Origin: Sarea resinae
Lineage: Eukaryota
Reading direction: 5' to 3'
Assembly (NCBI GenBank): GCA_026026165.1
Contig: JAPEUD010000049.1
Span: 62,001-126,000, forward strand
DNA length: 64,000 nucleotides
A program made the position numbers and the translations under genes. Shown here piece after piece: positions 804-43,727 of this stretch (positions are counted from its first letter, which is position 1; each line of letters opens with the position of its first letter). The notes beneath the pieces were generated by a model, which was given only the letters and a program-made list of their open reading frames with translations, was not told where the DNA came from and did not search any database.

Positions 804-3631
804 ATGTCGAGTGTCGCCACATCTGCTGTAACGAGACCCCTTCTTCACAGCGAGGAGACATGTCAGCCCAGGGAATCGCAATCGAGCTCTTATTACCCCG
901 CCCCTGAGACCGCGCCTGTCCAGGATGATGATACGTTATCACAGTCGAGCTTCACTACCTCTGCAGCAGAACCATCGCCTCTTCTCAGCCAGAGCACATT
1001 CCAAACTGAAAGATCGCAGCAGCTTTTGCAAGCTATCCATGAGCTCTCGAGCTCTGGCGTAAGCCACGAAATTGATTTACCCCAAGTAAGTACTTATGGG
1101 AAGAGCGAGGTGGCACAGAAAATAATCGGTAATATCTCAGCTCGTGATCGTAGGCGATCAATCGTCTGGGAAATCTTCACTCTTGCAGAGCCTTACTGAT
1201 ATACCCTTCCCGGTCGCGGAGAGCCTCTGCACTCGATTCGCAACACGTATCATTTCGAGGCGATCCCCCAGTCAAGAAGAAATCACAAAGATCTCAATTC
1301 AAGAGAACGGAGCAGGAGGGATGTTCGATTTCCGCAGGCCGGACGGATACAAAGAGAGATACAAGAATTTCAATCCAGTATGCTCGAACATAACCGGAGA
1401 AGACTTTCGGAGATTTGTTGAGGAGGTAAGTGTAAAGTGCTTTCAAATTCTCGTATCAGTGATTGAAGAGACTAGGCCGCAGAGCTCATGGGTGTACCAA
1501 AACTGGGAGCTTCACCCCAGGCCCCTCCCTCCGCAAAAAAGAACAGCATTTTCCCCCGCACACGCAACTTTTCGAGAGATGTCCTGGTTATCGAAATATC
1601 AGGTCCGGATCGTTCACCTTTTCAGATCGTTGATGTTCCTGGATTGTTCCACACGGCCTTAGGAATGGTGGAGACCACGGATATCGCAGTGGTGACGGAC
1701 ATGGTGTCCCACTTCATGAAAATGGAGCGAAGTATAATCGTGTAAGCCTGCAATCTCTATGGATTGGCTTGACCTGTAACTGACCTCCAAAGCTGTGTAG
1801 CCAACGGAGTGTCCGAACTGGCAAACCAAATAGTTTTCCAGCAGGTCCTGTCAGTAGGACATGATCCCAAAGGGGCCCGCACCGTTAGAGTCATCACGAA
1901 ATGTGATGCTTCCCAACACGTTGACCAGGCAAGTTTTGTCAGACGGCAGAGGCTAGTCAGTTGTCTGATTTCTCCTAGATCATCAGACTTGCGCAAAATG
2001 AAACGAAGCCCCTTTCACACGGCTGGTTCGTCGTTCGCAACCGTACTCCTGCCGAAGTACGCGACGGGATCGGCTCCGACGAACGCCACAAAAGAGAACA
2101 GGCCTTCTTCTCCGAGCAACCATGGATTCAGCTGCCTGAAAACCGCCGGGGCTCGCGTGCCCTCAAACTCTATCTCGCAAATCTCCTGTGCAAGCGTATT
2201 GAGGAAGTTTTCCCGACTCTAGCAAAGGAGATAAAGGAGCGTAAAGAGTCGACCGAGCATCAATTAGCAAAATTAGGGCAATCTCGGAAGAATCCAAGGC
2301 AGAGGCGAACCTTTTTGACATCTTTGTCCCAACAAATACATGCCATCAGTCGGGAAGTGATAGATGGACGCTACGACCAGGTCTTCGACAAGAAAGACTT
2401 GAAGCTGCGAATGCTCGTTCGCCAAGCAAATGACGAATTCTCAGATGAAATGGAGATGGGTCACTACGTGCCGTTCTCGGATATACAGCAGACTGGGCCC
2501 GAACGGCTGAACAATCAAACCAGATTCAATCTTGCAAAGCAGGCTGGTGGAATCAAAGATAATGAGGTACGTGGGACAGCCGCTCTACCTTTCAATGAGT
2601 ACGTCGAGATGGATCCCGATGGCGCAACTCTCTTGTACCAATCCCTCACAACCATGAATGAATGCCAGGGCTCTTCTTTTGAAGAATTGCGGCTGGCTGA
2701 CTATAAGCGTGAGAATACTGATTCACAACAGAGAAGGCCCTTCGGCCAAGCAGCAGCCTCTAGGAAACCCTCAGGCTTTGATCGGCCGGCAACTACCGAA
2801 CCGGCCAATACTGAGACCGAGATATACTACTGGATTCAGGCTGCTATCGAAGATAATCGCGGAACAGAACTTCCCGGAACGCTGAATCCGTACATCTTAC
2901 CTAAATTGTTCAAGGAGCAGTCTAGGTATTGGGGGGAAATCGCAGAAGAACACTTCGGATATGTTTGTAAGCTTACAGAGTCCTATGCAGAGGGCATCCT
3001 GGATCTATCATGCATCGACGAATTTGTCGTCCGACAACTCCGGGGGGTCATCGAGACCGCCAACAAATCCGCCAAAGCGCGAGGCTTGGCCCGTCTTCGG
3101 GAGATCGTGCAAGATGTCGCGTCGAGTACCCTCCAAACGAGCGACCAAACATTCCAGGAAAAGGTCTCCCAGGCACGCCTTCGTCGCTTCGAAGCCGCTC
3201 TTCGCCGCTACAAAGCCCGCACCCCGAAGGTCGCTGTAGGCATGATAGCACTAAACTCTGCCACTGATGTCGAGGTTGACCCCAATGTCGTTCTTCTCAA
3301 TCTTCGCGACACAGAATCAATCTTTCGCGAAATTCACATCTCCAACGAGGAGAATCTCCAGTACGAGATTCACGATACCCTGAAAGCCTACTACGAGCTT
3401 GAGCTCAAGAAGTTCGTTGAAAATATCAACAAGCAGGTGGTCGAGCGCTACCTAGATGATGAGGATGGGCCCGTTCTTTTCTTCTCGCCGGCATATGTCG
3501 GTCTGTTGAATGATGAAGAGGTGAAAGATCTAGCGAAAGAAGACGACGCTGCTGTGGTGGAGCGGGAGAAGGCGGAAGCGTCGTTGGAGAGGCTAGTGAG
3601 GGCCGAGAGAATAGTAGAAGGGTACATCTAA
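804..3631 (+). CDS. Mx-like dynamin-family GTPase (5 exons: 804-1085, 1141-1425, 1476-1741, 1793-1928, 1979-3631)
   Basis: The spliced product has the dynamin G1 LPQLVIVGDQSSGKSS, CTRFAT (G2), IVDVPG (G3), VITKCD (G4), HGWFVVRNR and the stalk RGTELPG motif, and ends with the GED-like YYELELKKFVENINKQVVER. Introns are GT-AG except 1929-1978, which is GC-AG. Confidence 0.9.
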
Positions 3632-4387
3632 TGGGGCGAGGGCTTTGATCTGCGAGACAAGGGTTTGCGAGAGATGGGCGAAGTCTGGAAGTTATACTCG
3701 ATACCGGTACATCGCACCTCCGAGCCAGAAGTAGCAACTTTCAGATGGGTAAAGCCTGATCACTAGCATGTACATTGACGGATTCTCCCACTATCGTTAC
3801 CAATTTCATTCCGTATCGTGCGCGTCAGCCCGCCTGCGAAAGATGGTCGACTTGGTCGGAATGGACCTGTACGACGTAGTGACGGTTTCCTCGTTTTGGA
3901 ATAGGGGAATAGGGGTCGCGTTTCTATCGGAGTAGTTGGTGATCTTCCGTCGCGCGCGCCTCGCTTATACCTATCAGAGATCTGGTCTGATCGGATCGGC
4001 AGCAAGGAAGCGCGGAATGAATGAACAAACACCACCTACGTCATAAGGCACCAACAATCGCCATCCACCTTTTCCATTCATCTTCCCCCGTATCACGTAT
4101 ATCTCCAATCTGCACCTCAGTTACGACGACGACGACTCCATCTTTCAACAAGGCCTCTCGGAGCACTCATTGCATATTTCCTCCCTTTTCATTAGAAACT
4201 AAAGATCGCGAATTGCTTGTCCTGTTCGGCTCCGCAGGCCAGATCGAACTCCTGCTTTTCAGAAGCAAGGGATTATTGTCGACTTCCTGCATCTCCATAA
4301 GCCTCGATTTTCAGCCAGTCAAAGCCCACGAGCAGTACGAGACACCCTGAACCAACACCAAACCCACATCATATTTTACTCATACTC

Positions 4388-6633
4388 ATGGATACCGAAA
4401 GGTCACCAGATAACGATACAACCGCGGCCCCCGCCATGATTCATGCCACCCCAGAGACTGCGCCGACGGAAAGCCATGCACTGGCAACAGTCGAACAAGA
4501 TGAGAAAGGCGTTGCGCAAGAGGCCCATGCTGAGCCGGAAGTGAAGGACTTGGGCTGGAATGCACCTGTTGAGGCGGTCCCAGCTCCTCTAGTTGGCGGT
4601 CTGCCCAACGAAGAGCTCTGGGTGCTGGTCCGGCGATTTAATAAGGTATCTCTTGTTATACTGGCCGTAATCATCCCGTCTAACGAAGCCGCGGCGCTAG
4701 CAAATGTACCATGTCAAGGCACATCCAAAAGCCATCGAAGGCGATCTCGATCTGAACATTGCCGATGAAGAAGAGTTCTCGGCCGATAAGCTACGGAGTA
4801 ATGTCGAAAGACTGTACATGACCGTGGTATGTATGCCCACTGCTTCCGATCGGCATACTCTGATATGACCATAGATTGTCGGACTGGCCGGGTTCGGAAA
4901 ACACATCGCAAGACTACGGTCATGGAGAGAGACGAGACGGACGGCGGCATTTTGTGCGGTAAGGCTGCTTCCATTCTCCTTGAGCGAATTGCTCTGATAG
5001 GTGTTTAGGCATACTATGTTGCCTGGTTTCTCAACCTCTTGATGCCATCATTATTCCTCATGATGATCACTCTTGTCGTATACCCGCCTTCTAGAGAGTT
5101 TCTTTTTCCTCCAGTTCCCCTAGCTTTGGTTGATGCAAGGACCGGCCACGTCAAAAAGCCTTCTGCCGGTGTCCTTGGAAGCACTGATAGCATGACTGGG
5201 GCGCCTGAACAATTTCAAGGAGAAGCTGTGGAGCAAGAGGCAAACAACTTCGTCAATGGTGTGGCGTCGATAGCGTTGAGCAGTGCGACCGGAAAACACC
5301 CCGAGAATAAGGCCGAGGAAGAGGAGGGAGTCGACACGAGCGTGCCTGATCCTACCCAGATTGCGACTCGAGCAGCGGAAGCGCGAAACGCCAGTGGTGG
5401 TGGTGTCCCTACCCCTAAACGTGATAAGACCAAAAAGCCAATGGAAGAGGCTATGTGGGAGAAAGCCAGGCCTGTAATGCATATCATCGGAGGCATTTCA
5501 GATGGCTGGGAACGATTTGGAAAGTGCGAATTTGCTTGCATGAGATGATCGAGTAGCTCAATTGCTAATGGTTCACAGTGCACTTTCCCCGACTGCTCCA
5601 TTTCCTAAAGAGAAGGCTCGCCTCAAACTTGCCGGAGTGCTAGCCCCTGCTTGTTTGGGAGCTCTGCTTGTCACCTCGTCCATGTTCGTCAAAGCAACCA
5701 CATTCCTAATTGGAAGTGCATTTTTTGGTGACCCAGCCATCTCGAGGGGAATTACTTGGCTTGATCACAACTACCCTGACTGGCAAAAGCTTCTGGAGCT
5801 CCGAAAGTAAGCGGAACACCTCTCCTATTTCAGACCAATATTGACTTTGTAACAGCACTCTTCTGAGGGGCGTCCCCACAAACGCTCAGCTTACGATAAC
5901 TCTCCTCCGTATTGGTGAAGCCAATAAAGCTCCTCTCCCCCCTCCACCACGAACAAGAGAAGCACCCCCAACCAAAGCTGCAAGCCAGATCGACGCCGAT
6001 GACATATCTCTTGATGTTTCCCAGGAAGATCTAGACGCCGCCATCCATCCGGATGAAAAGCATCTCGAAGCCGAGAAGAAGGAGGACGAGCAACAAGCCG
6101 CCAAGCCTAAGCACGGCCATCGCATCGTCTCGCTCCTGAAAGGCACCATCAGAACCACCGTCGAGACCACGCTCGGCACGGACCGCTTCAAAGCCAAAGT
6201 CGGCTCCACGACGGCCCGGAACCGTCTCGGCGTCCTTCCCAATCCTAAAACTCCGCTCATCTCTGGCCCCGTCGACTTCAAGGCCCGCCACAAGGGCAAA
6301 AAGGGCCATCTCATCATCAGTACCGCGCTTTCTGATACTCCCACCATCTCGTTCACGCGCGAGGAGCATTCGGCCGACAGTCTGGACCCGGAGGATATGC
6401 GAAGTCCCGTCTTTACCGTGGCCATCAGGGATATCAAAGAGTTGAAGAAGATCGGAGGCCTGGGATGGAAGACGAAGCTCGTTGTGGGCTGGGCCATGGA
6501 TCGGGAAGTCGCGGATGGACTGGAGATCGTGGATGCCGAGGGCAATACCTGGAGACTAACAGCGATACCACTAAGGGAGGAATTATTCAATCGACTGGTT
6601 GCGATGGGCGGACAGAGATGGGAAAGTTGGTGA
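4388..6633 (+). CDS. DUF3292-like conserved fungal membrane protein (multi-exon)
   Basis: Exons joined by GT-AG introns (e.g. 4646-4700, 4827-4874) give DLGW..PAPLVGGLPNEELWVLVRRFNKQMYHVK..DLNIADEEEFSADKLRSNVERLYMTV..HIARLRSWRE, hydrophobic segments, and a C-terminal LKKIGGLGWK..RxELFNRLVAMGGQRWESW. The family was recognised from memory. Confidence 0.75.
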
Positions 6634-16130: not shown

Positions 16131-19100
16131 TCATCTATCCATCATGGCCGTGAGGGCCTTTCTAACCTCTCCAATCAAGCAATCAGCCTCAAGGAAGTCA
16201 ATAAGACTTGTAGGGCCGAACACGCCTAAGCCGAGTTGGCCATTCTTGACCGCAGCTTCAATGTCCACCGACGGCTATAACGGCACCTTAGCTTTGATGA
16301 ACGAAATGAAATTTGAAGAATCGGGGTTCTTACCACATAGGCTTTATTGACGAGGTTACCCCTCAGTGCTACAGGGACTTGCCACCCCTCTTGGTTTCCG
16401 GGGATCGTGGTTCTATGGCCATCCTTCCAGTCCTGTTCTACTTCTTCGATCTTAACCGCTTCATGTTCTGATTCGTCTCTTGAATCTGGCAGAGTTAAGA
16501 TGTTGATGAAGCAGTCCACCTTTATTCCCGTCCACGATTCAATGTCCCATAGAGACACATTCGAGTGTTCAATGCTGCCTATTTCCTGCAGGTCCTCCTG
16601 TATACTGATAGCAATATCCATAAACGTTCTTTGGAAAGGCCTATGAACTCTCATAGGCACAAGATTGACAGTTGGCGCAAGAAGTACATCCAAACCTTCA
16701 GCACCATGTGACCGATTTGCCAAGTATATCCCAAAAATAACATCTTCGGGTTCGGAACCAGTAGCCCGTTGAAGCATTTGGCCATGAGCAACTGCACATG
16801 CAGCGATGATGAGGGCCTGCATGCTTACGCCCTCTTGTTTTGCCTTTCTCTCCAATCTATCTCCCGTGTCAATGACATTGGGTTGGAAGACTTCAGTTCT
16901 TGTAGTATATGATACGTCTTGTCGGAAGGGCAGTCTCTTTGCTGTTGCTCCCAAATAATTCTTCCAAAACTGCTCCTGCTTTGCCTTGCTCGAATGAGTA
17001 CAATTGAAGGCAACGAAATCAGCAATACTGTCCATGCGGAGGGCATCATCTATATTGTTGCACAATCTTTGGAGTTGGTGAATCATTCTCGGCAGGCTGA
17101 CCCCATCATATAATGCATGGTGAATCTGTAGCTTTATGCGAATATGGTGATTTCTTTGCTGGGCGTAAAGCGTCACTGGTGGGGCGGCGAGATCTGATTT
17201 CTTATTCCTTTTGGTCTCCTCATCATGGTTTTCAGAAACCCAAACAATGTGTTCATTGGAACTTCTAAGTGCGACCTGTATCATAGGAACACGTTCGTCC
17301 TTGGTCGCAATGAAAGTGGTACGCAGTATCGGTAAGTTTTGGACAAGCTTTGTCCAAGCTTTCTCGAGGCTTTCGGGCTCCAGATCACCGATGACACGAT
17401 AATCGAATGTCGGATAGAATAATGTGCCTTCCGAATTCTGCCATGAAGATAACATATAGACCTGTCCGGCGGTAGCAGGCATGACACTTTCCGCATGGAC
17501 CCTCTTGATGCCGACTGTCTCAATTATAGACCATGTATCGAGGCCATCTAGTGTATCTGCGAGCACCTTGTGTGTATCAACGGCTGCAGCAGATGACACA
17601 TCAATTTGTCTGTTGCTGATGATACGAGCCATATTTTCAACAGTAGCGGCTTTTAGCATATCGCTCACGCTAAGTCTCATGGATTGTTTCTTTAGCAATG
17701 CAGATACCTTGATAGCGCTGATCGAGTCAAGTCCAAGGTGGAATAAGGAAGAATGTTTCGAAATTTGGTCTTCTGGGACCATGCCAACCGTAGATAGAAC
17801 CTTGCGAATTTTTTTCTCTGTAGCTGACCATGTTTTGGGTCCTGCCTGTCGCTCTATGTCAGGTGAGGAGCTCTCTGTCCCCAAAGGTGTTTCCTCTTCA
17901 TCTCTGAAAGCTGCCAGTCCGCAAATTGAAATTTGTTGCTCGCTTATATCAAGCACTGGAGATTCCGGAGACTCGATTATCTTGCGGAGCACGTAATCCA
18001 TCTCATGGAGTAGAAGTTCTGTGTTTTCGGCGTCCATTGTGGATGAATCGCAGGCAACTCGCCAGATCAAGGATTCATTAGTAGCCTCCATTTCGGCACA
18101 TACAGGATACTTTGGAATGGTCAGCAACTAAAGATTGATATAGAGAATAGCTTACCTCTACATCCGATAGACCGCCCACAGACTCATATATCAGAGTACC
18201 ATTCGACCCATTTGGTTGTTTCTGATAGATAAATAGCGTATCAAAAAGCTTCCCATCGCGTGCCTTCATCATGGCCTGAGCCTTCCGAAGTGGGAAGTGC
18301 TGATACTGGGATATGTTTGATATGTTTTCTTGCACGTAATGCAGCATTTCTTTCCGCGACCCATGAATAACAGAGCGGATGGCTACGGTATTCATTGTCG
18401 GGAAGAGCAGTAGATTTGACTCTTCACTTTCACGCCCTGATAGAACCGCACCAAAGACAACATCCAGTTGATGAAGGTGACGGGCTAACACGAGAGACCA
18501 GCATGTTTGACCTAGAGCCTGCATAGAGACGCGCTGGGATCGGCAGAAGGATGAGACTTTATCGAGATTGATTAGACTTGTCCTTTCTTTTCGATAGGTT
18601 TGAGATTCCTCATTTTCGACGCAAGAATTTCGCGGGAAAGCCGAGGGTTTAACACCAGCCAAGCTACTACTCCAGAAAGAGGCAGCATCATTACCAGAAG
18701 AATTGAGGATGTTCTCAAGCGTTCCGCGCCAGGATGGGCGGGAAGAGTACAATCCATCATAAGCTTTTCGCACATCGTCATGAAAAAGACTTAGAGACCA
18801 GCCATCATAGAGAGCATGAGAAATAGATAGAATGAGAAACTTTTCATCTGCGACTTCAGCGAAAGTTAATCTGAACGGCGCCATACTAGAGAAATTTTCT
18901 TTGACGTCCTCAGTAATTGTGTCGAACAGGGCTCTAAAGTTATTTCCGCCATCAACCGTATGTGTGGAGATGGCCACGGTTTTTGGCGAGTGTACGAGCT
19001 GAGCATATGTGACGGCTATGCTAGGCTCATCAATCTCAAAGAAAGATGTTCTCAGTATAGGAGAATCTTTGACGACAGCATTCAAAGCCGCTTCTAACTT

Positions 19101-22100
19101 CTTCGTATCGACTGAGGGCAAAATTTTCAGGACGTCATGATTGAAATACCGCTTGAAATCAGATTGTATCATCTCGGCAACCATGGCCTCTTGGAGCGGG
19201 GTGACTGGCAGGACTTCTTGGATCTCCTGAAAATCATCCAATTGTATCAAAGTTGTCTTCAGTCGTTGCTCATAATCATCAAGATCGACTTCCTTTATGT
19301 TTTCGTGGACGACATTGTGTTTTACTGCAACTTGCGCAGTCATATTTGCAACGGTAAGCGTTCGCATTATCTCGCTGACAGAGATATTGATACCGCTTTG
19401 CTTTAGCCTTGACGATAATTTGATAGCGTCGATACTATCAAGACCTAGTTCAAAGATCGAGGAGTCCTCTGTGAGTGTAGCAGGATCTGCACTAGCCAAG
19501 GACGCTATTTCGTTGCGGATTGCAAAAGCATCCTTCGTCCATTGAAATTCGTTTATCGGTGTATTGCTGTGAGCAAAGAGGCCCGCTTCTGAGACCCCAT
19601 TGACGGTGTTTACACTATCTAGCTCTGTTCTGGCATCTTCCGAAATTCGCTGCTCCGGGTGTGCTTGAAGTCGAGAAAGTGCATCTTTGAAGTATTGGAG
19701 GAGCTGTGTGGAGGTTTCCTTGTTAGACACCGAGCCTTGGGAAACGATAGTAAGCCGCAGAGAACCATCGAGCTGGTATACAGCCTCGAAGGAAAGAGGA
19801 TACTAGGGAAGTTAGCGGTCTTCGTCGAGAGCATTACAACATCATCTTACATCGGCTTCGGATGTAGACTCTATTGAGCGCCAGAGAGGCCCTTTTTCAA
19901 TTGGCGCCTCTTCCATTTCCTTTTGGAAAACAAACAAAGTATCGAAAAGTGGCCTATCTGGTGTTCGTCGACACCATTTCATGATGTTTCTTAAAGGAGT
20001 ATGTTGAAACGGCAAAGCTTCCGTGTTGAAATTGTGGCAGAGTTGGACAGCCTCCGTCCAAGTCGAAATAGCATTAACCTTGGGGTGGAAAGGAATTGTG
20101 TTGAAAAGTGGGCCAATAGTGAGATCTGCGTGCTCTATGTCGATTGATCGTCCCGAAACGACTATACCAATCGTCAAATCAGGTATATATTTTTGAAGAA
20201 CGGACATCCAGCAAGCTTGGGCAACAGCTTGATGAGTGACCTTCAACTTTCGTCTGACTGCCTCAAAGGCCCCTGGGTCATTGATTGCCATAGAAACCTC
20301 ACTACTGTCTTTAGACGGTGATGCCACTAGGATAGGCATTTTATGGTTTCCAGATCCATTCAAGTGTCTAGTCCAAAAGCTTTTGGCATCATCCATAGGC
20401 TTGAGCGGTCCGTATGGTAAGACTTGGAGGTAAGAAGGACCATATTCGATATTGGGTGCTTTGTGGTACTCCAGGAGAACTCGATGAAGCATCACTGGCA
20501 AGCTATTTCCGTCATATAACGCGTGAAAAATGTGGAGACACATGACAGTCCGGGTAGGCGCACGAATGATTAGTATCTCAAAAGGCTTACGAATAATATC
20601 TCTGTTTTGCTGCCACCATTTCCGATGGAGAGTTTTCGCAAGTCTCTTGACCTCAAGTTCTTCAGAAGCAGTGCTTTCAGTCCAAGGAAGCTCCAGATGA
20701 TGTAGTGTCACTTGAATATACCCGTCTGTTGTTGGGACGAACAAGGTCCTTAGTATCTGAGCAGCCTTCATGACCGATATCCAGGCCCTTTGCAGTTCCC
20801 GCACTTCGGTTGTGGGCAGCAGCTCAAAGTAGAATGCAGCAAAGTAAAGAGGCTTGGTGCTTTCGAGAGTTCGAGATATTATTCCTTCCTGTAAGGGAGT
20901 ACATGGCGCTATCTCCTCTATGTCGTTGTGAGAAACATGCAGACTTCTGGATACGGACGATCCATATTTGTGTGAAAATGCTGCAAGCTGCTGTTTAATA
21001 GCTCTTATCGAGCTGCCATGGGCGGTGCGGCCTTCCGAGGAGGCCAAGGCTTTTGCGAGCTGGTCAATTGTAGATTTTTGCATGACAAGAGACGTTTGTG
21101 CGTCGCCAAAGCCAGCATCTCTTAGCTTTTTGGAAAAGGCTATGACTGATATCGAATCGAGACCTAATTCGAAAATGGACGAATATCTTGATATATGACG
21201 AGGGTCAATATGAACCAGTTGGGCGAGGATATCGAAGATCCTTCTTTCCTCATCAGAAAAGTCCTCTTCTGCATCCTCTGATTTCGAAAGCTTCTGGAGG
21301 TCTCTAACGGACAGTGTTGAGTAGAGCTCCTTTAGTTGCTTGGCATCTACTTTGTTGTTCGCAGACAAGGGAATGAAATTGACCGGAACGAAATGGGTTG
21401 GAACCATATACCCGGGAAGACTGGCTTGGCATGCTTTTCGAATCGCGGAAGTGAAATCCGCAGTCTCAGGACCAATCAATATTGTAGAGGCTTTAGATTT
21501 GAGCCAGGCATTTTTAGGGACCACAAAAGAAACGAGTTGTTCTTTTTGCTGCTTCGGAAGTTTCAGGACTAGAGAAGTCACTTCATGGACATCCTCAACG
21601 CCCTTCTTTATGACAGCATTGATCTCGCCAATTTCGAGGCGCTGACCCCTTAGCTTGACTTGATCGTCTGCTCGTCCAAGGAAGTCGAAGGTCCCATCAT
21701 GCAGTATTCGAACAAGGTCTCCTGTACGGTAAACACGCTCGCTGGGTTCTATCAGAGGAAACCGTTCCCGGGTGAGGGCGGGTCGGTTGAGATAGCCGCG
21801 CCCTACAAGAGGCCCGGATACGCAAAGCTCCCCCACAGCACCACGAAGTACAGGTGTGGATGAATTTGGCAAGAATACGAATGAACCTACATTGTCAAAC
21901 TGTGGCCCTATATTTGAGGGCTTGCCATTTGCTGGCACCCTCGGGAACATAGTGACGCCAATTGTCGCTTCTGTCGGACCATATCCATTGTAAATCACTC
22001 CTTTAGATCCCCAAACATCGAGAATATCTTGCCGAAGTTGTTCACCCCCTGTTATAAAAACGCCCCTGCAAAGAGACGGTACCTCATCTGGATGCAGAAG

Positions 22101-25100
22101 CCTTGCAAGGCTTGGGGTGAGATCGATATGAGTGATGCCAAGCTGCTGTATGGTCCCAGCAAGGTCTTCAAAGATCAAATCTCGAGGCGCAGAGGAGACA
22201 CAGATTCCAACACTCCAACTCCAATACTGCTCCAGTACACTTACATCGAAGTGGAAGGAAGCGAATTGAAGCCATTTAGATTCTTCGTCCCAGTGCCCCT
22301 TGAAAAGGCGCTGGAACGATAGCATTGCTTGAACGGCATTCTCGTGGGTAATCTCGCAGCCCTTCGGCGTCCCGGTTGTCCCTAATGTTTTTGTTATCGA
22401 ACCTTCAGAGTTCACGCAGGCATTGGAGCTTACCAGAAGTGTATAAGCAATAGCACGTATCGCTAGGGCTGATTGCTCTTGGCAGTGTGATAGATTCAGA
22501 AGGCATCTTCTCTATCGTCTTCTTATCTTCTAGATTTATGACTGGGATCCTCACGTGATCCTGGAGCTCTGATGCCTTTTCGCCAGCTGACAGAATTATC
22601 GATGGTTCAGAGTCTTCGATGATAAAGGATTTGCGGGCAATCGGTGCACCAGGGTCGAGTGCAACATAAGCACAACCAGCTTTCAGAATCCCCAAGATTG
22701 CTAACGATGCTTCTGGACACTTCTCGAAGCATATTGCGACTAAGTCGCCAGGCTTCGCTCCCTTGGTCTGCAAAAGATGAGCAATTTTGTTGCCATCGGC
22801 ATCTAGTTGGTGGTAAGTCCACTGCTGTCTCACTAGCTTGGGCCCATGGAGGCTTGACGCAAATTCGAAAGCGAGCTTTTCGGGAGAGCACCGCGCCTGC
22901 CATTCCACAAATTGATGGAGCAGCTTGACATCAGATGCCAGCATTCGCTCCTTCGGGGGGGTAATTGAAAGGAGTTTAGTGTTGAGCTTGGACATGTCGG
23001 TGCTTTGTGCACTAAGAGAATTTACCGTATCCCAAATCAAGGCATCGAGTTGTCGTAGGATCATCTGAGCTTGTTCTTTCGGAATGAGATCATCCGCAAA
23101 TGTTATTCGGAACTCAAAATGAGTATCCCCGACTGGCTGCAGCTCGATAGAAACAGAAAACTGGTTGAGTTCAGTATCATAAGATGAGTTCTGATTGGAT
23201 AGGAGACCATACATCTACCGTTGCACCTTCATCGATAACCTGCCAGGGTAACTTCCTGGGAGACGCATTGATCGACTTCTGAAAGGCAAATATGGTATCG
23301 AACAATGCCTGATCTGAATGGCCAGTCCAACGCTGTATTTTCGGCAAAGGCGTTGACTGGTGTCTGACAAGAGCCGAGTTGACGCTCATAATCTGTTGAG
23401 CAAACTCTAGATTACTTCCCTGAACATTGCAAGCTAACGGAAGGGTGGCAATGCAGGGAAATGCAACGCTCTCGGCATCTTCACATATTGTTCTTCCAGA
23501 AAGGACTACTGCCGTCAGCAAAAGGTGGGAAAATTAGAAGAAAGATTTACCTGAGCCAAATGTGACGGAATGTTCACCCGTATAAGCCGCCAAGAGGCGA
23601 GCCCACGCCGCTTGGCCGGCTGCTTGCATTGTAATCCCGGCCGTTTTGCATCGGTCTTCGAGGTCACTCCTTGTAGCTGAGCAAACCATCGAGGCGACAT
23701 GATTGGCTTTAGTGTCAACTCGTAGTGGGGTCAGATTAGGAAATCGATTAACAAAGATGTGGTCGTTTTGAGCGTCCCAGAATGCTCTCTCATCATCCTC
23801 CCTGTCCTGTGCGCTGAGGATGGTGGAGATCAAGTAATTGGGTTGAATCGCAGGAAGAATTTTGTCTCCCGAGTAGAAGCCGACGACATCGTCAAGGATG
23901 AGTTGTAGAGAATGGGCATCGTACAAAGCATGGTGAGCGGAGAATTGAAGGTGTGATGTCGAGCCCGTCCGTATTGCCGTCAATCGCCAAGATGGAAGAT
24001 GCAAATTTCTCTGCACGTAATTCGCAGCTCGATTCCGCTCCTCCTGAATGATTGGCGATATATCGGCGTGTTCCACTGATTCAGTCCAAGGTGTTTCTAC
24101 CCGATCCTTGAGATAAGTCAACATAGCAAATGGATATTGCTCATCATTGATCAGGGCGAAACCAGTTCGCAGCATCTCGTGCTTTTTTGTGGCTTCTTTC
24201 CAGGCTTGGTGAAGCTTACGCATATCCGTGCTGGGCGATATCCTCATGACGACGTGGTTGAAGTACTGCTTGCCATTTGAATGAAGGAATTGGGCTATCA
24301 TCCCAGCCTGAACAGCAGTACATGGCCGAACAAATTCGATGTTTTCGGCCGGGAGACTCAGTGACTGGCAGATGGACTGGCAATGCTTGTTGTGGAATGC
24401 TCTAAAATCGAATTCAGTCTGCGTACTGTCTGAGACTTTACGATCAGGAAGTAGTAATCGAGTAAGTTGTCCGATAGTTGGTCGCTTTTGAATTGTTAGC
24501 ACTTGCTCAGGACAATCACTCATTCCTTTACCTTTAAGATATCTGCGGCCGTAACCCTCATATCCTTCTTTCTAAGCTGTGCCGCAATTTGAACAGCACT
24601 GATACTGTCGAGACCGAGCTGATAGATCGTAGTATCACGACCAAAAGCGTCTGCGGTGATCCCAGATAGATTTGATAGGATCCTGCGGAGCTCTGTTTCT
24701 TCCTGAGTCCAGCTGCCTTGGCCGCCCCCGTCAGCATCTTGATCGTTTTGCCTCGCCAGCTCTTCACCTTGCTCTATTTCGTAGAGTTTCCGCAGAGTCA
24801 GCTTGTCAACCTTGCCAGCAGAAGAGAGCGGGATTCGATCAATAATGATGAAGGTTTTCGGAACCATATAAGCAGGCAATCGAGCTGAAGCGGCGGTTCG
24901 AGCATTCCGCTCAATCTCGGGACTCTGGTCTATTTCATTTGCGGGTGTTATCACCAAGAATGATACGATTTGCTCCTTTGACGATGGAGAGTACTTTAGA
25001 ACCTGAGTGGTCACATCTCTTATCCTCGGATCGCCACCTTTCACAGCAATGCTAATTTCATCAAGTTCGACTCGAAGACCGCGGATCTTGATCTGGTCGT

Positions 25101-28100
25101 CAGAACGACCTATGAAGTCGTAATTGCCGTCTGAAAGCTTTCGAACCAAATCACCAGATTTATAGACTCTTTTGGGAAACCTGGTTTCGAGGAAATGCGA
25201 ACGTGTGAGCGCTTCATTTGCGTAGTAGCCCCGAGCAACCTGAGGTCCTCCAATATACAGCTCGCCCAGTCCGAAGATCGGAACAGCAGAACCTTGATCA
25301 CTAGTTTTCACGGTGAACGTGGTGGTAGGAAACGGAGATCCGATAATTGTGGACTTTTTCTGTGATCCCGACGGACGAATTGTGCAGCACATTGCGGCTT
25401 CTATTGAGCTATCAGCCTGAATGAAATAGTCGAAACCCACTAGACCTTACCTGTAGGACCATAAGAATTCAGGCATTTACTGCCCCATCTGTCTGCCAAT
25501 TGCTGTGGCATAGCTTCGCCAATACAATAAAGGCATTCGATCGATGGGACAGATTCTTTAGCAAGAGTCATAGCTACTGTCGGGGTAAGATCAAGCATTG
25601 TTATGTTCAGATCATTGATTGTGGATATTAGATCGTTGATCATTGCCGGCTGGGTCGTAGCACATAAAGCAAATCCAAAGGTCCAAGCCAAGAAACAGTC
25701 GTAATAGCACATATCAAACGTCGTTGCTGCAAATTGAAGCAGGCGAGTATCCTTCTCCCAGGGTAAAATCGACCTAGAACACTCAATGGTTTGCGTTGCA
25801 TTCCGATGCTCTACATTGACAGCTTTGGGCCTGCCAGTCGATCCAGACGTGTATAAGCGGTATGACAGGTTTGCTGACGACAAGCCTTTGATAGATAGGT
25901 CGACTATAGGTAAGTCGCAAAGTGTCGTCAAATCATCGACATTGAAACTTGGTAGGCCAGACCATGACATGTCCATCTCGCTGTTGCATAATATAAAGCG
26001 AGGCCGAAGCTCCTCTAGTATGAACGTGTTTCTGTCGATTGGGGCTGTTGTATCTATCGGTGTAAATGCCGCCCCAGCTTTGAGCACTGCTAATACGCTG
26101 AGATAGAAGTCGGGGCCTTTCGACATGAAAATTGGGACCGGATCGTCCGGTTGGACTCCTTGTCTCACCAGAGCGTGGGCAATGCGATTCGAAAGCTGAT
26201 TCATCTCTTGGAACGTGAAAATTGTTTGTGTCCCCTCCTTAGTCATGAAGCATAGTGCGACAGCTTCCGGCTTGGATCGAGCGTTTTTCTCGAATGCTAA
26301 ATGCACAAGGCTCCCATTCTGGCACTCTAGTACTTCAAAGTCTTCGTTGGAAGTAGACAAAAGGTGATTCCCAATGTGATCAAAATTCCCTGCGGGCGAT
26401 AAAGGGAATTGAAAGATCAAGCTCATCGTTGACTCAAATGATTCGAGTATAATGTCGACATCTAGGGATTTTACGATAGAGCTGCGAATACATAAGTCAA
26501 AGCTAGCTGAAGGTCTTCATGCATGCTCACCTATGACCATGAAGGAAAATTGTAAGACTATCGAGGTCGCGGTTGGGTACCAGCTCCAGGACAATCGGAA
26601 GCTACAACAGATCAGTACGTCAAAGTCGATGCAGAATTTGAATAAAGGTCCGCTTACATCCATTTCACCAATATCCTCTTTGAGGGACCAAATATCTTCG
26701 TTGAGCTGTGTCTCTGGCTGTTGCAGGATAAATAGGGTGTCGAACAAGCGTAGGCCGTCTTGACTGAATTTTTGCTGAATCCTTCGAAGAGGGGTAAGCT
26801 GAAACGGGAGAGAATCACTATTGATTCGTTGAAGGTCTCGGATCAACTGTAGATTTGTCGCCTGGGCAACTTTCACTCTGACCGGCAGGGTATTAAAGCA
26901 TGGTCCGACAATCCTCTCGACGCCATCCATCGGTATCGTTCGGCCGCTGACAACGTTTCCGAAGCACACATCTGTATTTCCGAGATAGGTAGAGAGTAAT
27001 TTGGCCCATGCGGCTTGTCCCAGGCCCAATAGAGAGATTGATAGTCTTTTGCATTCATTCTCCAATGCACTAAGAGAAGACTTTGTGATTCTCTTACCAA
27101 TACTAGTTCCGGTGAGCATCTTCTTGACGGTCGCGGACTCACCTGAAATATCGGGGAAAGAGTTTGGTTCGAAGCCTTCCAAGCTACTTCCCCAAAATTT
27201 GTCTGCTTCTTCGATCTGCAGGTTATCCATAAATGCTAAAAAGCCATCAAATGGCACGACAGGAGGTAGTGGGGCACCAAAGTACGACTCTTCAATTTCC
27301 GAATAGAGGACAGATATCGCCCCCCCGTCATAGAGTGCGTGATGCATAGATATCAATAGCACTATTTCTGAAGGGCCCACGAATGCAGTGAGTGCATATG
27401 GTGGTCGAGATTCCTCTACTTTTTTTGCAGTGCCATTCATTTGATCGCGTACAGCAATCTCAAGGTTGCCGGACGGAACATTTACTGTAGCCCAAGGTAA
27501 GTCACACTGATACAGTACAACTTGAGCAAAAGCATAGCGCGAGTCGTCGGTCGTAACGAAGCACGTTCTCAGGATATCATGCCTCTGGCTCATTGTCGTC
27601 CATGAGTTCTGAAGCCTTTGGACCTCTCCGTGGATTTTTAGGATAGTATGATTGTAGTATCTCGGATTTTCAACTGAATCTGCTGCTGAGAGCATAGCAT
27701 CTTGTAACGGCGTGCAGGGATAAATGGCCTTCACTTCCTGGCCGTTGCGTTCGAAGTCCTTCTTGGTCTGCATAATGAAACCTTCATCAAAGACCCGCTG
27801 CAAGTCTGAACTATGCTGCAATTTAGTCCCTGCTTGATTGCCTCTTTGTGTGATTTCTCGGCATAATGAAGCAACACTCGGATACCGAAGGATCGCCGAC
27901 ACGTCAACTTGAGCGAGGTCCGATTCCCTCAGGTTCCTAGACAAGGATATTGCAGATATAGAGTCTAATCCAAGTCCGAAAAAGGACGTCTGGCGATGGA
28001 TTTCGGCCACGGGGATACCCGTCGTCTTAGCGACTGCATCGGCAATTTGATGCTCCGTCTCCGTCCACTGCTCTTCGCTGTCAGTGGTTCTGTGCTGGGA

Positions 28101-31100
28101 AACCAGATCCATGTAATCACTGCTCAAACTTTCGAATGTAGAAGCGAGCTTCTTTTTGTCAACTTTACTCTGAACAGTTTCGGGCAGTCGCGAAACCGGT
28201 ATTAAAGCCGAAGGCAGCATATAAGCCGGTAGGGATAGTGTAAGCTCATCCCATAGGTCGTTCATCCAGTCAGCTACCGTTCCTTCAGGCGCCAGCACTT
28301 CGTATTCTGCATTAGACAGTCCTTTTGGAACCCAGAAAGAGACCAGTTGCGTGGTTTTGGTCTGAAGCCGGTCAACAGCCAGGCTGATGCAGTCGTGCAC
28401 ATTCGGTGATCGCAGAAGATTGTTGTTTATTTCACCTAGCTCAATTCTCTGGCCCCGAATCTTGATCTGGTCATCTTTCCTACCGACTATGGAAAGAGAT
28501 CCATCAGGTAGTAATCGGCCATAATCTCCTGAGCGATATAAACGTCCAAATTTGGGGTGATCCAGTATCTTTGCGTAATTTAACTCGGGCATATTCATAT
28601 AACCTCGGAACTATGGTAGCATGGTCAATGAGAGAGATTGAAGTACGTCCAAGAACGATGGCATACCACTTGATCGCCACCAAAGCAAAATTCTCCGACT
28701 GCGCCTCGAGGCATCAAAGAAAAGTCATCATCATCATACGCCACAAAGGTTGAAGTGTTTTTGAAAGGTGGTCCGACGTTATTCCTGAAATCGGAAGCGG
28801 TGGTTCTCGGTCGAACAGAACAGATATTTGTCGTTTCCGATGGGCCATAGCCTACATCAATTAGCATCGAGACTTAGATCGAGGGGAATCACAGGGAATC
28901 ACAGGGCATACCATTATATAAACCTTTATCTGCCCAGTCATTAAACACCTTTTCGGTCACTCCCTCTCCAGCTGTGACAAGAAACTTTACAGTGGGGACG
29001 TGAGCTGGGGTCACCAGAGCAGCAACAGTGGGCGTCAAACTCAGATGGGTAATACCCATCGTGCGGATGGCATTCTCGATATCTCGGAATAAAACATCCT
29101 TAGTAGCTGAGCAAAGACATATTCTGCTTTTCCAGGAGAAGAAAATTTCAAAAACGGATACGTCAAATGCTTGTGAGCATGACTGCAAAAGCTTAGAACT
29201 TGAGGTGACAGGATAGATTTCAGCCAGAGCATCTAGGTTACTCAATAGATTTTGCCTTGTCACCATCACACCCTTCGGAATGCCGGTGCTTCCAGATGTA
29301 AACACCGCATACGCAAGGTCCGAAGGTTCCCCTCTGATTGCGGGATTAGTCTCGGGATAAGGGCAAAAGTCCTCTTCGTCAACAGTGATAATGGAAACGG
29401 TAGCCAGGTTTTCAAGAACAGGCCTTGAAGCGGAATGGCCAACACATAATTTGACTTGCGCTTGCGTGATTATCTGACTGATTCTCTCTCGCGGAGTTTC
29501 CGGAGTAATAGGAAGGTAGGCGGCGCCAGTCTTGATAACAGCCAGTATTGTGACATAAAGGTCAATCGACTTTTCCATACATATGCACACCAGTTCATCA
29601 CAGGAGGCCCCTTTCTCTATGAGGTGATGTGCTAGCAGGTTTGAGCGCCGATTCAGATTGCTGTAGGAGATACTGCTGAATACTGCATTGGGGCCATCGA
29701 TGGACTCTGCAAACTCGATAGCAAGCCTGTCGGGGGTCTCTGATGCCGCATCCTCTACAAAATTGTATAGATCGATGTTACTAGTCGAAAATTGAGGCTC
29801 TGGGTTCTCGATCGATAACAGCTCCGGACAGAAACATCGGCCAAAATCCTGGATCGGTAAATCCGTATCTTCTAGGAATCCACAAACAAGCTGATCGATT
29901 TGTTGAAGCAACAAATCAACTTGGGCTTCTGGTAGCAAGGATTTCTGGTAGTTTGCCTTGACGGCAATAGAGTCAACTCCAGGCTCAATTTCAAGTGTGA
30001 GATTGAATTCCAAAAAGTCTGCAGCATCAATTTGCCGAATCAAGCTGGATCCCTCAGTTCCACTCCGCAAAGTCTGCTGCCACACAATTAGAGTGTCGAA
30101 GAGTGACCTTCTTGGGCTGAGACCAAAATCTTTTTTTATGTCGCGAAAGGGAATAGGATATTGATTCAGCGCCTTGCGATTGAGACTGTGAACATACTTC
30201 AGAAGCTCTTTGGTGGAATTGAATTTGGAAATGTCAATGCGAGTCGGGACTGTTGTAATGCATGGGCCAATGATGTCTTCTATTCCACGGACAGGAAAAG
30301 TTCTTCCTGAAGAAATGCTGCCGAAGACAATGTCTGGGGACCCGAGGTAGCAGCTTAGGAGGTATGCAAAGGCTGCTTGAAAGAACGTCTGTGGGCTAAC
30401 ACCGTTTCCTCGTGCAGCTAATTCCAATTTTTGCAATGGTGTTGTCATGTTGCGGCGGAGAGCTTCAATTGAAGCGATAGGCATTAATCTGCCGTGAAAA
30501 TTAGGAAGCTGGCTCGGACTAACTCCTTCCAAATGTTGACGCCAGTAGACCCTAGCGACCTTAATCTCGTCGGAATCTGCGAGGTTCGAGAAGTAATCGA
30601 CAACGCAACGATACTGGGGTCTTGCGATGATATCCTTTCCTCGCAGCAGACACTCAAGGTCAGTCAATATATGCTCTAATGACCAACCATCGTAGAGTGC
30701 ATGATGGATCTGGATCAACAATCTTGATCTGGTATCGAACGTGTGTAGCTGAACTCGCAGAGGTGAAAACAATAGGCTGTGTTCGTTTAATTCGAATCGA
30801 TAGCTGAACTTGGAGGTCTCGCAGAACCGGTGATCAGAAAGATCCTTCCAGATTACTTGAGCATAAGAGTTTGCAGAGCCTTGAACAGCAACAAAGCCAG
30901 TTCTCAATATCGCGTTCTGCTTTGCCAATTGCTTGAAGGCGCACTGAAGCGTTTTGAAATTGACGGGGGAAAGTACTTCTAGTTCAACCCAATTACAGTA
31001 GGCTTGAGGGTTGATTGCTGTTTCTGCCAGCAAGGACGCTTGAATAGGAGTACAAGGACAGACATCTTCAATCTGCAGATGATATATATCTTCAATGGTC

Positions 31101-33557
31101 TTCAGTGCATCTGTCCGCAAAGATGTCGACGCTATTCCGGAATCAGATGTTTGACCATTACAGTCGGTATGTTCTTCCTTGTCTTCCTTGTCTCCCTTGT
31201 AAAGATATCGAATTCTCTCTATTGTATCAGCATTTAGTATATCGACGGTTCCGAGGTCCATGCCCTGTCCACGGAGCTCGGAAGCAAATTGGATGGCACG
31301 TAAAGAATCAAGACCCGCAGCAGCAAGACTAGACGAACGAGAGATTTTCGAGCCAAGTAATTTCTGGGCAACATTGGAAATCGCGTGCTCCGTCTCGTCT
31401 AGAAGGGGTTCTTCGTCATTCGATCCTTGCTCTCTCTGAATTTTGTAGTCAGCCTCGAGCTTCTTAGCATCGACCTTGCCGGAAGAGAGCCGTGGAGCCT
31501 CCTCAAGCAGGACTACATCTCCTGGCACCATGAACCCAGGCAGCCATTTCCTGCACACCTCCAGGATCTGCTTTTGGGTTATCGAGGGCGTTCCTGTGAC
31601 GCAAAACATCACCAGCGTTCCATTAATGACTCTTCCTATTGCAGTATTGATTCCCGGTGTTCTGCAAGCGGCTTGTTCTGCCTCACCCAGCTCTATCCGC
31701 TGGCCTCGAAGCTTCACTTGTCCCGAGGAAATTCTTCCGAGAAATTCGAGACTACCATCGGGGAGTAACCTGGCCTTATCCCCGGTGCGATAGACACGGC
31801 CATATTGTTTGGTCTCTATAAAGGCTTGAGCCGTTTGTTCCGGTCGATTCAGATATTCATTCGCTAGCTGATGGCCGCCGATTGCAAGCTCTCCGATATA
31901 TCCAGCAGGAAGAACCTCTACTTCACTGATGGTGGCGGTTCCGGCATGTGGGGAAACGATCAATGCGGAGACGGTTTCGAGGGGTACGCCGATGATGCCA
32001 ACTTTTGAGTTTGCTGGGAGATGAGTGGCGAGCGTACAATGTATAGCAGCTTCCGTAGGCCCATACATCCCATGGAGAATGGGTATCTGATAGGAAGAGC
32101 CCCCAAATTCATCGACCACTGATCGCGTGAGTTGTTCACCAATAGTCAAGAGGACCTTCAACAATGGCACGTTTTGACGACTCCGTAGCAAACCTCCAGC
32201 AACCGTAGGAGTCAGCTCCGCAGCATCTACTTCGAGACGCCTCATGACCTCTGGCAGATCGCTGAGCAGATTGCTTCGGTCGCACCCAACAAGCGTGCTC
32301 CCTCGAAATAGAGGAAAGAATATCTCAAATACTGATACATCAAAAGTTGGTGCAGCAAATTGAAGAAAGCGATTGAAGTGTGGAATATGGGCGTCATGTG
32401 CCAGTAGAGCCTGTGTTGCCGCTGAGTGTGAGACGCTCACACCTTTTGGTGTCCCGGTTGATCCAGAAGTATACATAACATAAGCCAGTTTGTTTTCGTC
32501 CACGGCGTCGGCCAAGGCATCTGCCTTGGTTGGCATGAGGTCGGCTTCTTCACTGACAAGAACAGTTGGCGGGAAACCATCATTAGAAAATCTGAATTTG
32601 TATTCAGAAGTTGTCAAGACTGCCTTCGCTGCTATGTCTTCTATGATAAACTTCACACGCTCTGTTGGTGCGTCTAAATTGAGAGGGCAGAACGCTGCTC
32701 CAGCTTTAAGGACGGCCAGGATAGCTATGTAGAGTTCAGGAGATTGTGGAATGAGAATCGGAACAACGATCTGACTGCCATCAGGGGCATGCCCTGTTCC
32801 CAAGATGGTATTCTTCAGCCTGAAAGCTAAGGAAGTTGATAAGATGTCAAGCGACTCGTAGGAAAATCTCCGCCGCGCGCCATCTGACTCGAGAAAGTCT
32901 ATTGCGCATGCCTTCGTCCGGCTATGCTTTCCTAACAGCTGATGCAAAAGCTTTGGCCCTTCCAGCAGTTGCGGCCTAGGATTCAGTACTGATAGTGCCA
33001 GACGGTCGTCGATCACTTCGCGAACCAGATCGATCCGATCCCGTAGAGTTTGACGGACGATCCATTCTAGCTGTCTCGCAATCTCTTCGAGATGGCCGCT
33101 AGGTATTATTCCAGAGGTTGAAAGACGACCAGATCCTCCTTCTGATGGACAGTATAGGTGAAGAGCAAGATCAGGGAGATCGGAGAGGTCCTGTGTGGAC
33201 TGTAAGAGAGGTGCCGCAAGAACGGTTGGTTGGGCTGCTTACCCCACTGAAGGAGATTCCCGTCGATCGATCACCCTCAGATGCAGGTTCAGTGGCTTCC
33301 TTGGGACTGAAGTGCTTATTCGGCAGATCAACCTCTACATATTCCGATCCAACACGAAAGATTGGCTTCTCATCGTCGGTGTAGGCATTCAACAGCGACG
33401 CCCAGGAGATGATGAGGATCTCGACAGGGATCTGCGGCTGATCGCAGCGCCACATGCATGATGCAGGTGGTCGTCTCGCAGGAGTGATCGAGGACGACAG
33501 GTCGGGAAATTGGGACGGACATGCACCGGGACCCCCCATTGTTCCGCTGTCGCTCAT
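16131..33557 (-). CDS. sidC: Ferrichrome-family siderophore NRPS (SidC/NPS2 type), A-T-C-A-T-C-A-T-C-A-T-C-T-C-T-C, about 13 short introns
   Basis: Four adenylation domains (YVMYTSGSTGTPKG, YAVFTSGSTGIPKG, YRLYTSGSTGRPKA, YCLYTSGTTGTPKG, each with YGP[T/S]E and Y[R/K][T/S]GD). Six GLDS thiolation motifs (~31305, 27960, 24605, 21155, 19435, 17725) and six HALYDG/HALYDA condensation motifs. The frame is restored across GT-AG introns. Lies next to an ornithine oxygenase gene. Confidence 0.93.

Positions 33558-35252: not shown

Positions 35253-39812
<4,560 letters not shown>

Positions 39813-41991: not shown

Positions 41992-43727
<1,736 letters not shown>

Follow-up and report, generated by a model that had tools for sequence, protein, structure and literature searches.

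A Nup98-type GLEBS module in the stalk of an Mx-like dynamin of Sarea resinae and of lichen-forming fungi

Mx proteins are classic antiviral GTPases, and how they are targeted is still debated. A gene of Sarea resinae (Sareomycetes, Pezizomycotina) raises the question of why a GTPase of this kind should carry, within its stalk, a peptide that resembles part of a nuclear pore protein. The gene lies on the forward strand of contig JAPEUD010000049.1 (assembly GCA_026026165.1), in a stretch of 64,000 nucleotides (contig positions 62,001 to 126,000) that is referred to here as the window and from whose first letter all positions are counted. It encodes an Mx-like protein of the dynamin superfamily, the stalk of which is interrupted by an insert containing a peptide like the stretch (GLEBS) through which the nucleoporin Nup98 binds Gle2/Rae1. 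Judged by sequence comparison, this module is homologous to the GLEBS of Nup98, is conserved, and is restricted to one clade of proteins from lichen-forming fungi and Sarea.

The identity of the host protein is clear from several lines of evidence. Translation of the five spliced exons (Table 1) gives the deposited 873-residue product (P0005, from a metagenome-assembled genome of S. resinae). The GTPase motifs, i.e. the P-loop together with DVPG (G3) and TKCD (G4) in exons 3 and 4, are intact as read from the translations and from an alignment with 14 relatives, the closest of which is only 48% identical to the window protein. Pfam recognises Dynamin_N (E 3.2e-17, 63.5 bits against a cut-off of 27) and Dynamin_M (E 5.9e-26); the match to GED is weak (15 bits against a cut-off of 21.4), and neither a PH domain nor another membrane-binding insert was matched in the window protein at E≤10. 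The sequence matches of the last exon in the PDB were human MxA in four of four cases, with no other protein among them. An AlphaFold2 model, built from an alignment of 11 sequences (mean predicted local distance difference test score, pLDDT, 69.2) and helical up to the C terminus, had full-length MxB (5uot, E 6e-19) as its best fold match, with dynamin, MxA and Drp1 close behind in the Foldseek search (all four scoring within 1e-19 to 1e-17). The fold alignments to these four proteins extended over about 810 columns (E 6e-19 to 1e-15), at a low identity to Mx of 13-15%. Since MxB is the best fold match and MxA alone appears among the PDB sequence matches, Mx-like dynamin, as the first-pass annotation of the window had called the protein, is a fair description. 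The fungal MxF proteins have been described as uncharacterised members of the dynamin superfamily that group with animal Mx proteins and vary in copy number (PNAS 2025, PMC11789081). The window protein is probably of the MxF type, and its insert-free relatives include 'dynamin family' proteins of Aspergillus.

The insert breaks the first stalk helix about 12 residues ahead of the RGTELPG loop. Its 342 nucleotides can be read through without a stop in the frame of both flanks, and it is bounded by MEMGHYVPF and EIYYWIQAAIEDNRGTELPG, with dynamin sequence on both sides; in the alignment with 14 relatives it is not present in the Aspergillus, Trizodia and Caeruleum proteins. The G, E, L and G of the RGxELPG loop are invariant across both alignments of relatives, and the stretch shared with MxA YRGRELPG, which is insignificant alone (-1.5 bits), serves for register only. 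Positions 2573-2704 of the forward strand read GTAALPFNEYVEMDPDGATLLYQSLTTMNECQGSSFEELRLADY in the frame of the last exon (1979-3628), with the skeleton GTAALPF...YQSLTTM...SFEELRLADY; they are followed by KRENTDSQQRRPFGQAAASRKPSGFDRP (RRPFGQ...SGF) and then by EIYYWIQAAIEDNRGTELPG (NRGTELPG). The translation, the dynamin flanks and the alignment with relatives thus agree with the earlier placement of a GLEBS-like peptide in a stalk insert between MEMGHYVPF and the helix that leads to RGTELPG.

The likeness of this peptide to the GLEBS of Nup98 is, on the sequence comparisons, a matter of homology and not of chance. When the insert was taken as a query of 125 residues, its sole Pfam match was Nup98_GLEBS (PF21240; E 5.9e-4, 20.3 bits), covering the C-terminal half only (profile positions 19-39 of 39); longer queries gave 17.3-17.9 bits, and the family was found at E≤0.01 in three of 15 relatives. 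All seven PDB sequences that the insert matched with phmmer (E≤10) were Nup98, at E 0.08-0.8. BLASTP aligned the insert with a Nup98-type protein of Aureobasidium (P0217) at 45.4 bits and a pairwise E of 2e-10, with 38% identity over 101 residues, and this alignment spans the whole GLEBS (GT..PF..E.D...YQS.T.M....SFEELRLADY). An xEEx[RK]L motif stands at the equivalent position in 11 of 31 first-round relatives. A profile made from an alignment of nine dynamin inserts matched eight PDB chains at E≤10, each of them a Nup98 or Nup98 GLEBS chain (best E 4.2e-7, 33 bits), and hhalign matched the nine inserts to 14 nucleoporin GLEBS sequences over 56 columns with a probability of 99.5% (E 8.9e-23). 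Searching 5.8 billion proteins with the GLEBS and the adjoining repeats of a Stereocaulon relative (P0004, residues 497-640) returned 49 matches at E≤0.01, with scores that owe part to the low-complexity phenylalanine-glycine (FG) repeats; two were dynamins (P0004 itself and P0036), and 38 of the 47 others carry the Nup98-96 autopeptidase domain. The nine-insert profile finds a GLEBS in 38 of these 47 nucleoporin-like proteins, and its top four scores (57.6-59.4 bits) fall on two named Nup98-type proteins of Aureobasidium and two that are near-identical to them. The Pfam scan showed the autopeptidase domain itself (PF04096) neither in the window protein nor in any of the 15 relatives. The proposal that the insert is a captured nucleoporin GLEBS is borne out by the PDB matches, by the nucleoporin matches of the insert profile, and by BLASTP and hhalign; the pair of glutamates that contacts Rae1 is retained.

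A second class of GLEBS is known from the spindle checkpoint proteins Bub1 and Mad3 (BubR1), where a short paired-glutamate motif binds Bub3, a WD40 propeller like Rae1, and complexes of Bub3 with GLEBS are present in the PDB. A GLEBS of this class was rejected, since no Bub1 or Mad3 sequence was among the PDB matches of the insert profile at E≤10.

The residues of the motif are conserved alike in dynamins and nucleoporins. Column frequencies in 47 dynamin carriers, set against 38 nucleoporins, were 0.68 and 0.71 for T12, 0.72 and 0.82 for F17 (F or Y in the nucleoporins), 0.85 and 0.84 for Q34, and 0.83 and 0.89 for I36; in the C-terminal half they were 1.00 and 0.97 for S46, 0.70 and 0.95 for F47, 0.98 and 1.00 for E48, 1.00 in both for E49 and for R51, 0.87 and 0.97 for D54, and 0.81 and 0.97 for Y55. 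P16, S35 and L50 belong to the same set of columns, and the L of EELRLxDY stands at 0.98 across the 47 carriers, so that conservation of EELRLxDY among orthologues, on which the first-pass annotation had staked its reading, holds. E48 and E49 correspond to E558 and E559 of the window protein. In Nup98 these are E201 and E202 and in Nup116 E154 and E155, which are reported to form salt bridges with R216 and R172 of Rae1 and with R168 and R212 of Gle2, respectively (PMC3783196).

How widely the module occurs was assessed by searching 1.84 billion cluster representatives with a profile made from 11 proteins that bear the insert. There were 11,335 matches at E≤1e-3, of which 2,527 reached E≤1e-30. 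The GLEBS-like motif, called with the nine-insert profile at a domain E<1e-3, is present in 42 of the best 150 representatives, and 38 of the 42 lie outside the training set of the profile; the top 50 representatives account for 32 of the 42, ranks 51-100 for nine and ranks 101-150 for one. A FastTree phylogeny, unrooted and quick, was built on 430 columns from which the insert was left out; of 175 rows, 52 were dropped and the remaining 123, each with 60% or more of these columns filled, were used. The window protein falls in a clade of 53 rows (local support 98), 44 of which are carriers, and outside this clade a single row in 70 carries GLEBS, so that 44 of the 45 carriers in the tree belong to one clade. 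The carrier label needs at least nine changes on the tree, and none of 500 shuffles was as low (shuffled mean 36.8). On a tree that is unrooted and quick, one gain of GLEBS followed by several losses would be no more than the simplest reading of the order of events. Most carrier representatives are metagenome open reading frames, and taxon names are available for a minority only; the named carriers (Sarea, Sarcosagium, Stereocaulon, cf. Caloplaca, Polycauliona, Blastenia, Teloschistes and Letrouitia) are confined to lichen-forming fungi and Sarea. The inserts of Squamulea and Lignoscripta are rich in FG and contain no GLEBS, and proteins of Geoglossum and Trichoglossum have a degenerate version of it. 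The clade as a whole contains four forms of the insert, namely GLEBS with FG, FG only, disordered sequence only, and no insert.

In metagenome DNA, 13 of 80 related loci encode GLEBS, and in 12 of the 13 the motif lies within one uninterrupted open reading frame of 551-639 codons. The thirteenth locus (L001, positions 5550-5800) holds the C-terminal half of GLEBS only, QSISSSERYKNQSHEELRLSDYLQ, in an open reading frame of 373 codons; stop codons stand just upstream in the frame of the motif, so there is either an intron at that place or a decaying copy.

Beside the GLEBS, the family carries nucleoporin-like repeats. In the tails of the 42 carriers, taken as the stretch from GLEBS to the helix before RGxELPG (4277 residues in total), there are 166 FG, i.e. 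3.88 per 100 residues against 0.18 per 100 elsewhere in the same proteins. The commonest context is GLFG (24 cases), followed by GGFG, SSFG and SLFG, and the composition is rich in S (19.4%), G (12.2%), T (10.5%) and P (9.6%) with 4.0% D+E, compared with 14.8% D+E in the stalk. The tails are 0-427 residues long (median 77) with a median of three FG; 23 of the 42 have at least three and ten have none or one. Pfam Nucleoporin_FG matches several members, below the cut-off of 32.2 bits, and in one type of metagenome locus GLFG repeats flank GLEBS on both sides, as in Nup98. The earlier description of the motif as flanked by FG therefore applies strongly to the family and weakly to the window protein, in which there is one FG. 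As a separate observation, the protein of Sarcosagium campestre (P0003, 970 residues) contains another long S/T/P-rich insertion lower in the stalk, at alignment columns of about 1050-1235; it has SLFG-type repeats and falls at a loop of the window protein (741-755) that is modelled at low confidence and may be the equivalent of Mx L4.

Two more distant proteins also bear on the spread of the module. The 'dynamin GTPase' of Coccidioides posadasii (P0167), a more distant paralogue, has a tail of about 275 residues after GED (637-912) that is S/T/P-rich and contains several FG; it ends in a GLEBS-like C-terminal half (...YFYSITSLLTNNSFEELRLADYALE) that scores 16.3 bits with the insert profile, and looks like a second, C-terminal way of joining FG and GLEBS to a dynamin. 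In a protein of Lophiotrema nucula (P0210, 1293 residues), a GLEBS-like motif at 696-730 has FG repeats on either side, and Pfam shows only Nucleoporin_FG and no Nup98-96 autopeptidase domain; on its sequence this would be either an unusual nucleoporin or another GLEBS carrier.

That the GLEBS stretch behaves as an exitron and is spliced out in frame, whether from every transcript or from a single isoform, is extremely unlikely in our judgement. The signals for it are present, as a GTACGT at a codon boundary, a branch-like CTGAT/CTGAC site and a CAG bracket GLEBS exactly (2567-2731). Against removal, the residues of the motif are conserved at the protein level in 47 proteins, and the uninterrupted open reading frames of the metagenome loci contain it. 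The candidate is also three times longer (165 nucleotides) than the real introns of the gene (50-55 nucleotides), its guanine-plus-cytosine content of 49.1% is nearer to the exons (50-52%) than to the four real introns (34.7-46.9%), and an equivalent candidate was absent in all four other loci checked. The gene model that gives the deposited product leaves the stretch exonic, and the intron signal probably arose by chance.

We propose that the module keeps its nucleoporin function and tethers an oligomerising GTPase at or near nuclear pores, a reading that we consider modestly probable on the basis of the sequences. A module of a fungal Nup98/Nup116/Nup145N nucleoporin would have been copied into the first stalk helix, just before RGxELPG. 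In the window protein it amounts to the GLEBS hairpin sequence of about 45 residues, to which most relatives add GLFG-type FG repeats after it and sometimes before it. The GLEBS would bind the WD40 propeller of Gle2/Rae1 through the conserved salt bridges between the glutamate pair and arginines, as in Nup98 and Nup116, and the FG repeats, where present, would take part in FG-FG and transport-receptor interactions. The protein appears to have a G domain, a four-helix stalk and bundle-signalling helices, and to lack a PH domain. The oligomer that its stalk is expected to build by GTP-driven self-assembly would, through these contacts with Gle2 and the FG network, be anchored at the pores or close to them. 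Because the window protein is a GLEBS-only form with one FG, the Gle2 tether would be its main predicted activity. RGTELPG is presumably the L2 loop of the Mx/dynamin stalk. In the MxA and dynamin structures, L2 is located next to L4 and the PH domain, at the stalk end opposite to the G domain; the module would then presumably occupy this far end of the stalk, the region in which Mx contacts its targets through L4 and dynamin through its PH domain. In the AlphaFold2 model the insert is flanked by helices at 466-482 and 604-615. Inside the insert, at a confidence too low to be relied on, the model shows hints of a beta-hairpin (529-534, 540-545) and, after it, of a helix (557-570).

Several observations weigh against tethering at the pore. 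Nine of the 53 clade members are without GLEBS, which means that it is dispensable for the core function of the protein. The FG density of the tails, at 3.88 per 100 residues, is half that of real Nup98-type proteins (7.96), and the tails are more charged, with 4.0% D+E and 6.4% K+R against 0.5% and 1.6% in Nup98 domains. The window protein itself belongs to the low-FG group, its one FG being that of PFGQ, and at three conserved columns it does not follow the consensus (I36 to L, Y42 to C and Q57 to R). A Met that is invariant in 38 of 38 nucleoporin GLEBS sequences is found in only 36% of the dynamin carriers, although the window protein retains it, and the 'AG[NR]K' that follows DY in nucleoporins has become 'xQ' in the dynamins (Q 0.85); with the relaxed Met and the lost 'AG[NR]K', affinity or partner may have shifted. 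The location at the tip of the stalk is presumed from the structures of MxA and dynamin, and the pLDDT of the modelled insert is below 50 at 493-532 and 538-601. The significant Pfam match that the first-pass annotation had asked for was not obtained either, as the single window sequence falls under the curated cut-off for PF21240 (20.3 bits against 27). The genuine nucleoporin P0217 of Aureobasidium, with its autopeptidase and FG domains, is rejected likewise at 24.8 bits, and a missed cut-off therefore says little for fungal sequences. At curated thresholds Pfam misses the GLEBS of these dynamins, and the precomputed Pfam annotation of the dynamin relatives contains no PF21240, with PF13634 for one protein only.

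Other roles for the module can be imagined. The GTPases of the clade may act away from the pore as self-contained mimics of it, their ring-forming oligomers showing GLFG and Gle2-loaded GLEBS as bait; the bait may lure GLFG-docking capsids of long terminal repeat retrotransposons or viruses, or viral proteins directed at Rae1-Nup98, on their way to the pore; and GTP-driven assembly may then trap or break what has been captured. This reading seems to us rather unlikely. The idea is inspired by the condensates of human MX2, which are reported to mimic pores and recruit FG nucleoporins, and by reports that yeast Nup116 binds Ty3 Gag3 in vitro by way of its FG region and that truncation of NUP116 lowers Ty3 mobility (Beliakova-Bethell 2009, as cited in PMC5918913). 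It would also suit the strongly varying copy number of fungal MxF genes, which has been likened to the gain and loss of animal Mx genes (PMC11789081), the high variability of the module within the clade, both in tail length and in the four forms of the insert, and the co-occurrence of two carrier paralogues in the same metagenome assemblies. However, the GLEBS is strongly conserved and not diversifying, the window protein has almost no FG to offer as bait, and nothing links the gene to viruses or transposons, its neighbours being housekeeping genes and a siderophore-type cluster. If such a decoy did exist, it would be an independent version, encoded in cis, of the pore-decoy strategy of human MX2, and an 'integrated decoy' outside the NLR proteins.

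The strong conservation of the core motif would suit a housekeeping factor of the pore or of export, which would remodel the pore or the nuclear envelope or control Gle2-dependent export of mRNA or pre-60S particles, e.g. by competing with Nup98 for Gle2. The same module is reported to anchor Gle2 to the pore and over-expression of GLEBS in HeLa cells causes mislocalisation of Rae1 and a block in the export of poly(A) RNA (PMC3783196). Both the housekeeping role and export control through competition appear improbable to us, as the named carriers all come from lichen-forming fungi and Sarea and the motif has been lost from several members of the clade, a pattern that is unusual for a core pore function, and as the nearest Aspergillus relatives are without the insert. 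Another possibility is that the module of the window protein is a decaying remnant that now serves as a flexible linker only. Its single FG where the family median is three per tail, the ten carrier tails with none or one, the Y42C, I36L and Q57R departures and the nine clade members that have lost GLEBS altogether would all agree with decay. Yet the most conserved residues (T, P, F, Q, S, M, S-F-E-E-L-R-L, D and Y) are intact and the 342-nucleotide insert is open and in frame with both flanks, which makes an inert remnant quite improbable.

Compared with known systems, the tethering that we favour would combine features of nucleoporins and of Mx proteins. As in Nup98, Nup116 and Nup145N (SonB), the GLEBS of about 50 residues matches over its full length, GTxxxPF...QSI[TS]xM..Y...SFEELRLxDY, including the glutamate pair, and relatives of the window protein have GLFG-rich repeats of low charge adjoining it, as the GLFG nucleoporins do. 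Unlike the latter, the host is a dynamin stalk without the pore-anchoring Nup98-96 autopeptidase domain, and the carriers differ in the lower density and greater charge of their repeats, in the relaxed Met and in the change from 'AG[NR]K' to 'xQ'. With vertebrate Mx proteins, especially MxB/MX2, they share a dynamin-type G domain and stalk and the lack of a PH domain. MX2 is reported to act with FG nucleoporins and near pores; it recruits them in trans through its disordered N-terminal region, whereas here the module is in cis, within the stalk. The fungal protein is not known to have an antiviral role. The word 'nucleoporin' appears nowhere in the main text of the MxF paper (PMC11789081), and no description of a GLEBS or GLFG module in a dynamin or an Mx protein was found in the literature searched, which left subscription journals mostly uncovered. 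An Mx-like dynamin with the GLEBS/GLFG of Nup98 thus appears to be an undescribed combination of known parts, in which a piece of a nucleoporin has been fused into an Mx-like stalk and kept in dozens of lineages. The carriers offer a natural minimal system for asking whether mimicry of, or tethering to, the pore is an ancient strategy of Mx proteins; the fungal MxF proteins would gain a concrete candidate partner, Gle2, and a location; and GLEBS is seen to be a portable module that extends beyond nucleoporins and spindle-checkpoint kinases.

Table 1. Positions in the window of the dynamin gene and of the features discussed in the text.
Feature	Position	Strand	Details
Mx-like dynamin-superfamily GTPase gene	804..3631	+	five exons, product 873 residues
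Exons of the dynamin gene	804-1085, 1141-1425, 1476-1741, 1793-1928, 1979-3628	+	stop 3629-3631
Intron 1	1086..1140	+	55 nucleotides, GTAAGT..CAG
Intron 2	1426-1475	+	GTAAGT..TAG
Intron 3	1742-1792	+	GTAAGC..AAG
Intron 4	1929-1978	+	GCAAGT..TAG, GC-AG intron, needed for the deposited protein
P-loop GDQSSGKSS, GTPase domain	1153..1179	+	open reading frame translation and alignment with 14 relatives
Stalk insert, residues 490-603	2477..2818	+	without counterpart in Aspergillus-type relatives
Candidate in-frame intron	2567..2731	+	165 nucleotides, phase 0, GTACGT...CTGAT...CAG; probably chance
Nup98-type GLEBS (Gle2/Rae1-binding sequence), residues 522-565	2573..2704	+	homology searches, conservation
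E558-E559	2681..2686	+	align with Nup98 E201/E202 and Nup116 E154/E155
S/T/P/A-rich tail with a single FG (PFGQ, 2741-2746) and SGF	2732..2818	+	reduced counterpart of the FG-repeat tails of relatives
RGTELPG, residues 617-623	2858..2878	+	in register with MxA YRGRELPG, 3zys_B chain residues 440-447

The surroundings of the dynamin gene within the window contain no defence-type context and give no hint of its function. Its downstream neighbour (4301-6633, forward strand) is a multi-exon DUF3292 gene in three open reading frame pieces (E 6.5e-20 to 8.8e-99), after which come a Brix-domain gene and a DEAD-box helicase, and a phosphoacetylglucosamine mutase gene is also among the neighbours. Further along, a multi-module non-ribosomal peptide synthetase occupies 16226-33238 on the reverse strand, with adenylation, thiolation and condensation domains spread over several open reading frame pieces. 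Listed with it are an ABC transporter and an L-ornithine N5-monooxygenase at 37050-39380 and 41992-42996 on the forward strand and, to judge from these gene assignments, the three together are a cluster of the hydroxamate-siderophore type.

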